DNA from: a virus
IMG/VR virus record: IMGVR_UViG_3300031260_000113
Location: 1-21,104 of that record
DNA: 21,104 nt
Strand: one strand, 5' to 3'
The translations under genes and the position numbers were made by a program. Below, piece by piece: positions 2,113 to 5,530 of this stretch. The first letter of the stretch is position 1; each line of letters begins with the position of its first letter. A model generated the notes under the pieces. It was not told the DNA's origin. It searched no databases and was given only the letters and a program-made list of their open reading frames with translations.

Positions 2113-2346
2113 GTTTCGGTGTTTCTGGGATGGGTTTATATGTGCCAGGGATTATATAGATTCTCATGGTGGGTTTGGGGTGTTGCGCGGCTGCTTTTTT
2201 TTGGTTTTGTGGTGGGTTTCCCCTCAGTCTGGTCTCTCCATGATGGTGTCACCTCCCCTCGGGATGTCTGATGAGAGCCGCGCGATCCCCCCACCACTCT
2301 TTTTTTTGTCCCCTGCTATCCTTTTTTTCCTCTTTTTTGTGTGGGT

Positions 2347-2380
2347 CCTGGAGGTCATCTTGCAGGTCATCCTGCAGGTG
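2347..2380. repeat. 12-bp tandem repeat, about 2.8 copies (CCTGGAGGTCAT CTTGCAGGTCAT CCTGCAGGTG)
   Basis: Read directly from the sequence; 1-2 mismatches between units. Confidence 0.85.
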
Positions 2381-2386
2381 TGTGGA

Positions 2387-2398
2387 TGGGGGTGGTGT
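2387..2398. repeat. Dispersed motif TGGGGGTGGTGT, copy 3 of 3
   Basis: Exact match, between the 12-bp tandem array and the palindromic TATA. Confidence 0.8.
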
Positions 2399-2403
2399 CC
2401 ACG

Positions 2404-2411
2404 CATATATG
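2404..2411. promoter_or_regulatory. Palindromic TATA-like element CATATATG, candidate late-operon promoter, possibly bidirectional
   Basis: Perfect 8-bp palindrome centred about 24 nt upstream of GTG 2432, the spacing expected for a leaderless or short-leader archaeal transcript. Confidence 0.45.
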
Positions 2412-2431
2412 TGTAGAGGGGGATTTGGGTA

Positions 2432-2899
2432 GTGTATTCTCGGCGTAGGGTTTGTGTGCGTTGCGGGGAGCTTATCCCCCCGTCTCGGAGGAAGTATTGT
2501 CCTGTTTGCGCTGTCCTGGTGAGGCGGGAGCAGAAGCGGGAGTATCAGAGGCGGTATCGGCGCTTGTTACGTGGTCTTGGCCGGGAGGGTTTGGGTGAGG
2601 GCAGGTTGGGGCCTCATCGGAATCCTGATCATCGTGTGGAGGCTGGGGTGGTTCGTCGGGAGCTTCGCAGGCTTCTTGGGCGTTCTAGTAGTGGTTTTCG
2701 GGATTCTCAAGTGTCCCCGGGGCCCTTGGCGATTCCTCCTCCTGTTTGGGGTTCGTGTCCTGAGTGTTTTTCGGATCAGGTGTTTTGGGATCCGCTTCGG
2801 CGGGAGTTCTCGTGTCAGGACTGTGGGTTGGTCCTTTCAGGGCCTTATGAGTATTCTGCGGGGTTTCGGGTTGATTTCCCGTGGGGGTTGATTATTTGA
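2432..2899 (+). CDS. Double zinc-finger protein, 155 aa: N-terminal CxxC..CxxC finger with Arg-rich helix, C-terminal TFB/TFIIB-type zinc ribbon
   Basis: CVRC-x11-CPVC followed by RREQKREYQRRYRR. CPEC-x15-CQDCGLVL matches the TFB ribbon pattern CPECG..x15..CxxCGLV. Confidence 0.8.
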   Translation: MYSRRRVCVRCGELIPPSRRKYCPVCAVLVRREQKREYQRRYRRLLRGLGREGLGEGRLGPHRNPDHRVEAGVVRRELRRLLGRSSSGFRDSQVSPGPLAIPPPVWGSCPECFSDQVFWDPLRREFSCQDCGLVLSGPYEYSAGFRVDFPWGLII

Positions 2900-2918: not shown

Positions 2919-3173
2919 ATGGTTTTTGATTGGAGAAACGTGAATGGTTGGCTGAGCACGTACGTTCTCGGGTTTGTTGTGGTTTTTGAGGGTCTACTCC
3001 TGTCTAATCCTGATCTAGGGGTTCGTCTATTGGAGGATGTTGGTTTAGGTGCCTACGCGCCCCTTATCCTGAGTCTAGCGGCTTTTACGTACGATTTCCT
3101 GTATCCTCGTGCTTCTCATCCCCCTTCCAATTCCTCTGCCGCTGATGATGACGGTCCTGATGAGGGGGCATAG
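2919..3173 (+). CDS. Small two-TM membrane protein with acidic tail, holin-like candidate, 84 aa
   Basis: GAGGTGA SD; hydrophobic segments about aa 14-29 and 43-62; C-terminal DDDGPDEGA. Confidence 0.6.
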   Translation: MVFDWRNVNGWLSTYVLGFVVVFEGLLLSNPDLGVRLLEDVGLGAYAPLILSLAAFTYDFLYPRASHPPSNSSAADDDGPDEGA

Positions 3174-3220
3174 CAGCCTCCTCAGTTCTGGTTTCTAGGA
3201 TGAGGTGCGTGGAGGTTCTG

Positions 3221-3523
3221 ATGGTGGATCGGAAGCATGAAAATTCCTGTTTAAATGAGAAGAGGATTGAGCGGATTGAAGTGAACCTGGAGTCGCTCCG
3301 GGAGGGTTTTTCGGAGTATAAGAAGGTGAACAGCGTCCAGGATGAGCGGATATGTGATCTGAGGGCTGATCTCGCTGAATACATGGAGGAGATGAAGAAT
3401 ATGAGGCGGAGCGTCCTCCTCCTTGAGGGGACTATAAATGAGATGCGCTGGGTCCTCAAAATCTTCATTGGGACGATGCTAGCGGCTATCGTGAAGGATC
3501 TCATCTTCCTTGGTTTCAGGTGA
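3221..3523 (+). CDS. Coiled-coil protein with C-terminal TM helix (XhlA-like architecture), 100 aa
   Basis: ATG 3221 after GGAGG (ORF-track ATG 3200 less likely). Heptad-rich body; ends WVLKIFIGTMLAAIVKDLIFLGFR. Confidence 0.65.
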   Translation: MVDRKHENSCLNEKRIERIEVNLESLREGFSEYKKVNSVQDERICDLRADLAEYMEEMKNMRRSVLLLEGTINEMRWVLKIFIGTMLAAIVKDLIFLGFR

Positions 3524-3537
3524 TGGTGGTGATCAGT

Positions 3538-4134
3538 GTGGACGTGGACTGGGGCCTGGTGGAGAAGGAGTATATTCATGGGGTGACGCGGGAGGATGGT
3601 TCTATCGTCTTCCCAACCCTGAAGGATCTCGCTGCGAAGCATGGGGTTTCATATCATGCTGTTCTGAAACGTGCGAAGGAGGAGGGTTGGGGTAGCCGGC
3701 GTGAGAGGGTTCAGGAGCGTGTGAAGATTCATCTGGATCGTCTCAGGGCTGATCAGATCGCGAGGAGTATCGCGGGGATGGATCTGATCTTCTTCGAGAC
3801 GAGCATGCGCCTAGCTCTCCTCTTGGGGGAGCATGTGGATCTCCTCCGTCAGAAAACGAGCCAAGGGGAGCTTGTTAGGAGTTCAGAGTTCTATAACATC
3901 TCCTTGGCCCTTAAATCCGCCTATGAAGTTTCCAAGGCCTCATTGGAGGATGGTGATGATGGTAAAGCTAAACCGGGCGGTGGGAAGGCAGCTAAATCCT
4001 CATCCGCTAAGTCCCGGCCCGTCACTGAGGTGAAGGAGAAGGCTGCGAAAGACCTGATGAAGAAGCTGATGAAGGAGAAAACAGAGAAAAGAAAGCCCCG
4101 TGTGATCGAACTGGAGGCGTCAGATGCTGATTGA
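3538..4134 (+). CDS. terS: Terminase small subunit (about 198 aa; alternative starts 3520/3523)
   Basis: DWGLVEKEYIHG...TLKDLAAKHGVSYHAVLKRAKEEGW is a typical TerS N-terminal HTH. Overlaps the terL start; GGTGA SD before GTG 3538. Confidence 0.8.
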   Translation: MDVDWGLVEKEYIHGVTREDGSIVFPTLKDLAAKHGVSYHAVLKRAKEEGWGSRRERVQERVKIHLDRLRADQIARSIAGMDLIFFETSMRLALLLGEHVDLLRQKTSQGELVRSSEFYNISLALKSAYEVSKASLEDGDDGKAKPGGGKAAKSSSAKSRPVTEVKEKAAKDLMKKLMKEKTEKRKPRVIELEASDAD

Positions 4135-5530
4135 GGTGAAGGACCCTGCCGAGCGGGTTGAGAGGAAGATGGAGGTCTTCAGGGAGCTGAAGGAGAAGGG
4201 GGAGTACGATTTCCTTGACGAACACCCCAGGGAGTCCGTGGAGGCCTTCATTGAGGGGATAATCCTGAATGAGTTCATCCCCACCATCCCCACGCCGAAG
4301 CAGGCTCTTTTCCTCCTATCTGATGAACCTGAGGTCCTCTACGGTGGAGCGGCTGGTGGTGGGAAGTCCGAAGGTCTTCTGATGGCAGCATTGCAGTATG
4401 TTCACGTGGAGGATTATCGTGCGCTTCTCCTTCGCCGAAACTACCCCGAGTTAACCCTCCCTGGTGGTTTGATCGATCGTGCGCATCAGTGGCTCCACAG
4501 TACTGATGCTGAGTGGGCTGGTGAGAAGAAAACGTGGCGTTTCCCCTCCGGAGCCACATTGACGTTTGGTCATATCGACGTTGACCGTGATAAGTACAGG
4601 TATCAGTCCACTGAGTTCCAGTTCATCGGATTCGACGAGTTGACTGAATTCACGGAGCACCAGTACCTTTTCCTGTTCAGCAGGCTCCGTAAGACCTCTG
4701 ATAACCCTGTACCTCTCCGTATGCGGGCCGCGACGAACCCCACGGGCTCCGGGCTCCGCTGGGTCCGTAAACGGTTCATATTGGATGAGGAAGCGCATTT
4801 CATCCCCGCCACGTTCCGTGATAACCCCTTCCTTGATTCAGGGTACTTGGATTCCTTGAAGAAGCTTGATCCGATAACAAGGCGCCAGTTGAAGGATGGT
4901 GATTGGATGGCTGAGGAGAAGGGCGGGCTCTTCGAGGAGAAATGGTTCCAGCGCTTCGCACTGGATCCCCCGAACCTCCTGCGGAGGGTCCGGTTCTGGG
5001 ATATTGCCTCCACGCCTCCAGGCGCGGGGAAAGACCCGGATTGGACCGTGGGGACCCTGATGGGTGTGGATGCGAATGGATACTACTACGTCCTTGACGT
5101 GGATCGTTTCCAGGCCAGCGCGAGGGACGTGGAGGAGCGTATACTCTGGAATGCTGAGAAGGATGGTCAGGACACGATCATATTGATCGAGCAGGAGCCA
5201 GGGGCCTCCGGGAAGATGATAGTCGATTATTTCAAGCGGAAATTGGATGGGAAGATCGTGTATGGTGTTAGACCTGTGAAGGACAAGTTTCAGCGTGCCA
5301 GGCCCCTGAGCAGTTATGCTGAGGCCGGTAGGGTGTTTGTGCGGGATGCTCCGTGGAGTGATGACTTCCTCTATGAGTTATCTGTCTTCCCACGCCATGG
5401 GGTGCATGATGACCAGGTGGACAGTGTCTGCGGGGCCTTCAATTACCTTATTCAGCGCGGAGGGTCCGATCTGGCCGTCTACGGGGCTGTGACGCGTGGA
5501 AAAGGACGTTTTGGGCATGAGGTGACATGA
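4124..5530 (+). CDS. terL: Terminase large subunit (Terminase_6/6C type), 468 aa
   Basis: Walker A YGGAAGGGKS, Walker B FIGFDELTEF, RAATNP motif, nuclease motifs FWDIAST and HDDQVDS. Confidence 0.96.
   Translation: MLIEVKDPAERVERKMEVFRELKEKGEYDFLDEHPRESVEAFIEGIILNEFIPTIPTPKQALFLLSDEPEVLYGGAAGGGKSEGLLMAALQYVHVEDYRALLLRRNYPELTLPGGLIDRAHQWLHSTDAEWAGEKKTWRFPSGATLTFGHIDVDRDKYRYQSTEFQFIGFDELTEFTEHQYLFLFSRLRKTSDNPVPLRMRAATNPTGSGLRWVRKRFILDEEAHFIPATFRDNPFLDSGYLDSLKKLDPITRRQLKDGDWMAEEKGGLFEEKWFQRFALDPPNLLRRVRFWDIASTPPGAGKDPDWTVGTLMGVDANGYYYVLDVDRFQASARDVEERILWNAEKDGQDTIILIEQEPGASGKMIVDYFKRKLDGKIVYGVRPVKDKFQRARPLSSYAEAGRVFVRDAPWSDDFLYELSVFPRHGVHDDQVDSVCGAFNYLIQRGGSDLAVYGAVTRGKGRFGHEVT

Follow-up and report, generated by a model that had tools for sequence, protein, structure and literature searches.

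A TFB-type zinc ribbon fused to a basic zinc-finger module upstream of the packaging genes in a virus of methane-producing archaea

Archaeal TFB recruits RNA polymerase by means of its zinc ribbon, which engages the polymerase dock domain, an established interaction (PMC7289017). In TFB and TFIIB proper, the ribbon is N-terminal and followed by a B-reader/B-linker, and contacts with TBP and BRE DNA are made by a pair of cyclin-fold repeats (PF00382). Sulfolobus TFB3, a truncated cellular TFB paralogue, activates DNA-damage genes in concert with other factors, and its ribbon is essential (PMC6101594). Among archaeal viruses, the full-length TFBs of Italian rudiviruses and Asgard viruses and the RIP protein (ORF145) of ATV act on or imitate the TFB-RNA polymerase interface (PMC9501531, bioRxiv 10.1101/2021.07.29.453957). 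RIP contains no zinc ribbon; it plugs the DNA channel and mimics the B-linker by topology only. In bacterial siphoviruses, late activators of the RinA/ArpU type are encoded just upstream of terS and act on the bacterial sigma/RNA polymerase system.

The gene studied here encodes a 155-aa two-module zinc protein and lies in a window (the whole stretch of DNA analysed, 21,104 nt) that is a 21.1-kb linear IMG/VR virus contig (IMGVR_UViG_3300031260_000113, estimated completeness 59%). Like TFB3, its product carries a TFB-type ribbon without a DNA-binding core. TFB3, however, is cellular, crenarchaeal and damage-induced, with an N-terminal ribbon and a C-terminal coiled coil, whereas the window protein belongs to a methanogen virus, places its ribbon at the C terminus beside a zinc-finger/basic-helix module, and has no detectable homology to TFB3 outside the ribbon. 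The comparison with TFB3 drawn in the first-pass annotation thus survives as a loose functional analogy but not as membership of a TFB3 type, the domain order being reversed and the partner domain different. Full-length viral TFBs retain the cyclin core, unlike the window protein. With RinA/ArpU-type activators it shares the position of a small, here putative, regulator gene immediately before a packaging and morphogenesis operon, in the absence of any sequence or fold relation. The two-module architecture occurs in none of TFB3, the full-length viral TFBs and RIP, and in the literature we found no discussion of ribbon proteins from methanogen viruses.

The window contains a siphovirus morphogenesis module encoding, in this order, TerS-like, TerL, Mu-type portal, MuF, tube, chaperone, tape measure and Dit proteins. 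Among Methanothermobacter viruses, psiM2 and psiM100 have TerL proteins 54% identical to that of the window and PhiF3 has one 46% identical, and the source is a tailed virus of methane-producing archaea. A megablast search of the whole window against phage records returned no match. The zinc-protein gene, two small ORFs, the TerS-like gene and TerL follow one another with short gaps or overlaps (Table 1). The small ORFs show no similarity to psiM2 ORF7, and similarity between the window TerS and psiM2 ORF8 is marginal (E 0.022).

Both upstream neighbours (412-951 and 977-2167) are on the minus strand. An alternative gene order using the plus-strand ORFs 452-907, 900-1523 and 2048-2416 was rejected, as these frames yield junk rich in Phe/Ser/Leu/Cys/Trp; opposite-strand and overlapping ORFs look non-coding. 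Since the left-hand genes run on the minus strand and the plus-strand frames that overlap them are junk, the zinc-protein gene is the first of the rightward cluster. It had been described as the first gene of a late operon: its place at the head of the rightward structural cluster, behind a 264-nt divergent region, is borne out, while its "late" class is an assignment from gene content alone.

The nearer leftward gene (977-2167) is a 396-aa ORF whose N-terminal half is extremely basic, of low complexity and rich in R/K/P/T/H, with a helix-turn-helix-like stretch (...YREGYTEPEIANILL...) in the C-terminal half. This ORF has no match in Pfam, PHROG or NCBIfam.

The zinc-protein gene is real and conserved. 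Three homologues of 86-96% identity occupy the same genomic position on other metagenomic or viral contigs, and an exhaustive HMMER scan of 1.84 billion representatives identified 67 relatives at E<1e-3; species-representative genomes yielded no close relative of the 155-aa protein. Across four close copies, pN/pS is 0.15-0.5 in the ribbon module and 0.85-1.9 in the linker, so that on these small counts the ribbon is under the strongest purifying selection within the protein. Third codon positions of the gene are 88% G/T and 3% A, compared with 62% G/T in TerL, a bias in keeping with the strand-linked excess of G and T over the left 3 kb (GC skew 0.23-0.25, AT skew about -0.55).

The divergent intergenic region holds several conserved elements. 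A tandem repeat within it contains the palindrome CCTGCAGG, has only one distant, two-mismatch match elsewhere in the window (6040-6052), and is a candidate operator in the divergent promoter region. A palindromic TATA-like box lies closer to the GTG start and belongs to the end of a 30-nt G-rich element that is repeated, one copy standing at each end of the leftward block. In minus-strand orientation, this element may equally be a leftward promoter for 2-349 and 977-2167.

Table 1 Coordinates of the zinc-protein gene, its flanking elements and related genes
Feature	Record	Positions	Strand	Details
Divergent intergenic region	window	2168-2431		264 nt; conserved in 5 relatives
Tandem GTCATC(C/T)TGCAGG x2	window	2354-2378		13-nt repeat, also given as GTCATCCTGCAGG; conserved in five relatives
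30-nt G-rich element	window	2380-2409; 387-416
Palindromic TATA-like CATATATG	window	2404-2411		invariant in five relatives; about 24 nt before GTG
Purine-rich SD-like GAGGGGG	window	2416-2422		9 nt before GTG, between TATA-like box and GTG
Zinc-protein gene	window	2432-2899	+	GTG start, TGA stop, 155 aa, two-module zinc protein
N-module zinc finger C8-x2-C11-x11-C23-x2-C26	window	2453-2509	+	treble-clef-like; AF2 pLDDT >90
Arg-rich helix	window	2510-2581	+	residues 27-50; AF2 helix spans 24-50
G-x-G-x-L-G-x-H-R-N-x-D ... E ... E-L-R-R-L motif and second helix	window	2594-2680	+	residues 55-83, conserved
Variable Pro/Ser-rich linker	window	2693-2752	+	residues 88-107; low pLDDT; pN/pS 0.85-1.9
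TFB/TFIIB-type zinc ribbon CPEC-x15-CQDCGLVL	window	2756-2836	+	residues 109-135; found by Pfam, PDB profile, hhalign and fold searches
Beta tail SGPYEYSAGFRVDFPWGLII	window	2837-2896	+	residues 136-155; family-specific; packs on ribbon in AF2 model
Hydrophobic ORF, 84 aa	window	2919-3173	+
Coiled-coil ORF, 107 aa	window	3200-3523	+
TerS-like gene	window	3520-4134	+
TerL	window	4124-5530	+
ORF6-family gene	psiM2 (L009)	3379-3732
ORF6-family gene	L095	7482-7934
ORF6-family gene	L098	7389-7844
ORF6-family gene	L102	1683-2102
Ribbon-plus-tail ORF, 70 aa	psiM2 (L009, NC_001902.1)	3736-3948		unannotated
Ribbon-plus-tail ORF, 71 aa	psiM100 (L094, NC_002628.3)	~2007-2226 (locus)		unannotated

Translation confirms the C-terminal ribbon claimed in the first-pass annotation, with TFB spacing and exactly at C109-L135, and likewise the N-terminal four-cysteine finger and Arg-rich helix. 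AF2 models the finger-helix unit and the ribbon with its tail at pLDDT >90, the linkers being disordered. The ribbon shares with archaeal TFB and with eukaryotic TFIIB and Brf1 (PF08271, 1pft) both the C-x2-C-x15-C-x2-C spacing and the non-cysteine consensus (CPEC-S...D..R.E..C..CGLVL). Residues 109-135 score 32 bits against PF08271, Zn_Ribbon_TF (E 9.2e-8; gathering cut-off 29 bits), with all four zinc-binding cysteines present, and the next Pfam family, S27e, falls below its own threshold at 1.6e-3. A six-frame family search places the same domain at 2753-2836 with 32.1 bits, and relatives score up to 44 bits. When a family profile of 39 members was run against all PDB sequences, the best match was the Pyrococcus furiosus TFB ribbon 1pft (E 9.1e-10), more than five orders of magnitude ahead of eS31, the runner-up at 4e-4, and of eS27; full-length TFBs were weaker matches of the profile. 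Alignment of 35 ribbon-only relatives with four full-length TFBs by hhalign gave a probability of 97.8% (E 1.2e-12) over 36 columns.

Fold comparisons gave the same grouping. Foldseek against the PDB ranked 1pft, TFIIB and Brf1 first, although the best E (0.025, for 1pft) is not significant. In a fold search independent of Foldseek, using the model of a 70-aa relative, 4 of 48,161 chains reached Z of at least 2, and all four are TFIIB-family ribbons; their Z is only 2.5-2.9 because the domain is tiny. Against BFVD, Foldseek returned a sole match, a 139-aa unnamed viral protein that is probably PhiF3 ORF6 (E 2.3e-5). All 14 ribbon positions conserved at 66% or more in the viral family (C,P,E,C,S,D,R,E,C,C,G,L,V,L) hold the TFB residue, and the x15 spacer is kept in 29 of 42 viral ribbons. 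Grouping with non-TFB ribbons, the outcome that would have spoken against the original proposal, was looked for, and every profile and fold test instead returned the TFB/TFIIB type. Taken on these comparisons, the C-module is a descendant of the archaeal TFB zinc ribbon, and the earlier term "mimic" is better replaced by homologue.

The remainder of the C-module departs from TFB. The hhalign alignment to TFBs ends with the ribbon, beyond which a tail of consensus Y-x-A-G-x-x-I-D-x-P-W-G-L, often at the very C terminus, is modelled as extra strands on the ribbon sheet. This tail is unlike the TFB B-reader: where TFB has a GPEWRAF-type B-reader/B-linker, the viral protein has Y-x-A-G...P-W-G-L, and the ribbon that precedes it is C-terminal instead of N-terminal. 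The C-module as a whole (residues ~105-155) is acidic, with a pI of 4.1. As had been noted, there is no cyclin-fold core; PF00382 is absent (E<=1) from the protein, from the window and from a 29-kb, 81%-complete relative (G001). The protein thus has neither the N-terminal ribbon with B-reader/B-linker nor the two TBP/BRE-binding repeats of TFB and TFIIB proper. Matches to PF08271 above the cut-off also turn up in 8 of the 14 control genomes, only 4 of them archaeal, and domain membership alone is therefore no proof of dock binding.

The N-module (residues 1-87) contains 23 Arg and has a pI of 11.6. It matches phrog_13750, a family of unknown function, over residues 18-81 (E 3e-6), as do 10 of its 14 stand-alone relatives (best E 6e-28), and the H-R-N-x-D motif with the second helix is the hallmark of these stand-alone proteins of ~90 aa. 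No Pfam family and no significant PDB relative was found for it, the best PDB match being to U1-C/eL24-type fingers (E 0.054). The finger itself shows sub-threshold likeness to the NinG N-terminus and DUF2116, and resembles the accessory fingers of NinG/Rap and HNH-endonuclease PHROGs (E 1e-6 to 4e-7). Assignment as an HNH/NinG-type nuclease was rejected: only the ~40-residue zinc finger aligns, below threshold, and neither a catalytic beta-beta-alpha-Me or NinG nuclease core nor any other nuclease domain was found in Pfam, NCBIfam or PHROGs.

Matches to the protein are of three classes: those with both modules, N-modules on their own (~90 aa) and C-modules on their own (50-125 aa). An HMM of each module was run over all fetched loci to score presence and absence. 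In the window lineage, in PhiF3 and in L012, a contig of an archaeal virus that encodes a histone, the modules are fused; in L011 they are two distinct genes within a single cluster. Judged from this distribution, the 155-aa protein is a fusion of two separable modules, each of which also occurs as a gene of its own.

Every Methanothermobacter virus lineage sequenced so far has the C-module. PhiF3 ORF6 (QGZ14583.1), whose GenBank note already names pfam08271, has the same C-module and tail at the same place upstream of the terminase genes, and also has an N-terminal zinc finger and basic helix, but without the H-R-N-x-D motif. In psiM2 and psiM100, ORFs of 70 and 71 aa consist of ribbon and tail and lie between ORF6 and ORF7, a short way ahead of TerS/TerL; for the psiM2 match, tblastn gives "no annotated feature". 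In both viruses the ribbon module stands by itself (psiM2 lacks the N-module throughout), and the ORF6 gene is instead its direct upstream neighbour. The C-module further occurs in L012 and in L095-98, whose terminase belongs to a different family. Its distance upstream of TerL is 0.9-2.7 kb in the window, its close relatives, PhiF3, psiM2, psiM100, L012 and L095-98, across two terminase types. Neither module was found in 80 TerL-anchored loci from species-representative genomes, mostly bacterial, with TerL 30-57% identical to that of the window. The C-module seems, on present genomes, confined to archaeal viruses.

In L102, an IMG/VR contig resembling psiM2, three genes follow one another at 1484-2318, encoding a zinc-finger/basic-helix protein, an ORF6-like protein and the ribbon protein, so all three partners can co-occur as one cassette. 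Just upstream of ORF6 in PhiF3 (L101, 4131-5833), ORF4 and ORF5 contain many CxxC pairs and are annotated as "putative redox proteins"; they look like zinc-finger arrays and not like thioredoxins, with a weak DUF7573 match as the only match of ORF5.

Our best explanation, to which we give a probability of about 0.42, is that the protein is a virus-made two-module transcription factor, an RNA polymerase-directed regulator of late genes. We favour it because the ribbon keeps the full TFB consensus, is apparently confined to archaeal viruses and holds a constant place before the packaging and morphogenesis genes. The C-module would most likely still bind host RNA polymerase at or near the dock site, with the conserved extra tail giving it properties of its own; this tail takes the place of the B-reader/B-linker and may alter the docking surface. 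The very basic N-module would most likely anchor the ribbon, either on nucleic acid or on a factor bound at the promoter. Between them, the two modules might bring RNA polymerase to the packaging and morphogenesis genes, or hold it there, as a late-gene switch of presumed timing and direction. There is no intergenic gap between the gene and the next ORF, and the protein would therefore act on its own operon or elsewhere. As psiM2 and psiM100 have the ribbon without the N-module, the tethering domain is not universal, and the proposal that a basic N-terminus binds promoters while the ribbon recruits RNA polymerase does not extend to the family as a whole.

Proximity to the terminase genes fits a packaging role equally well, given that the gene always adjoins TerS/TerL. 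The protein could be packaging-associated or otherwise non-transcriptional, its TFB-derived ribbon now binding DNA, RNA, terminase or a portal component, for example by assisting recognition or cleavage of the packaging site, in the way of the HNH-type helpers found beside terminases. The extremely basic N-module, the resemblance of its finger to the accessory fingers of NinG/Rap and HNH-endonuclease PHROGs, and the occurrence of PF08271-type ribbons outside TFB proteins are all consistent with this. However, the protein has no nuclease motif or domain, and its ribbon preserves the TFB consensus well beyond the cysteines. The ribbon also accompanies two different terminase families, and its absence from all 80 reference TerL loci, mostly bacterial, fits an archaea-specific partner. 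We regard a packaging-associated or other non-transcriptional role as rather unlikely, while giving it real weight.

A polymerase-binding ribbon need not activate. Occupying the dock, it could compete with host TFB as a decoy and shut off TFB-dependent initiation, of the host or of early transcription. Global RNA polymerase inhibitors are known from archaeal viruses, RIP of ATV among them (PMC9501531), and both the fully TFB-like consensus and the 70-71-aa ribbon proteins of psiM2 and psiM100, which have no detectable DNA-binding module, would suit such a role. These viruses encode neither an RNA polymerase nor a full TFB, however, so that a pure competitor would block the viral late genes too, and the repeated fusion or linkage of the ribbon to partner modules suggests targeted and not global action. 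We find a decoy improbable. Similarly doubtful is the idea that these viruses have their own minimal initiation or late-switch factor, in which the ribbon and its new tail would seize the dock and the cyclin core would have been swapped for partner modules (the zinc-finger/basic-helix module here, an ORF6-type protein in psiM2). In part without need of host TFB, such a factor would steer the host RNA polymerase towards late promoters, or else modify the enzyme close to the RNA exit channel as phage Q proteins do.

In psiM2, psiM100, L095-98 and L102-105 the gene immediately upstream of the ribbon gene is ORF6-like, which raises the idea of a split "mini-TFB": its ribbon would work with a second protein, from the psiM2 ORF6 family, that is like a cyclin repeat. 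In a language-model atlas, all named families listed close to an ORF6 homologue have PF00382 TFIIB (scores 0.83-0.86), a lead only, and the ORF6 family may be a single TFIIB cyclin repeat. Direct comparison by hhalign of the ORF6 family with TFB is not significant (probability 0.6%), and the family has no PDB sequence match. Moreover, neither the window nor the 29-kb relative has an ORF6-like gene or a PF00382 match, and in the window virus the N-module takes the place of ORF6. A split factor is hence, to us, very unlikely. That the gene is a chance ORF with accidental CxxC pairs in G+T-rich DNA can be dismissed, for although the strand has a strong G+T skew, with 88% G/T at third codon positions, distant homologues share the architecture, the Pfam match is above threshold, selection is purifying and the AF2 model is confident.

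To our knowledge, almost nothing is known about the timing of gene expression in tailed archaeal viruses, and we know of no late-gene regulator identified so far in a methanogen virus. Such a regulator has a concrete candidate in this conserved viral protein, in which the polymerase-docking piece is all that is kept of TFB. The comparison also corrects the annotation of the reference genomes psiM2 and psiM100, both annotated so far without a ribbon gene. Cultivable systems are at hand in psiM2 with M. marburgensis, PhiF3 with M. thermautotrophicus and the psiM100 prophage. If dock binding is true, the protein would be a natural probe of the TFB-RNA polymerase interface and would join TFB3 as a second, independent example of regulation by a TFB fragment that lacks the core.
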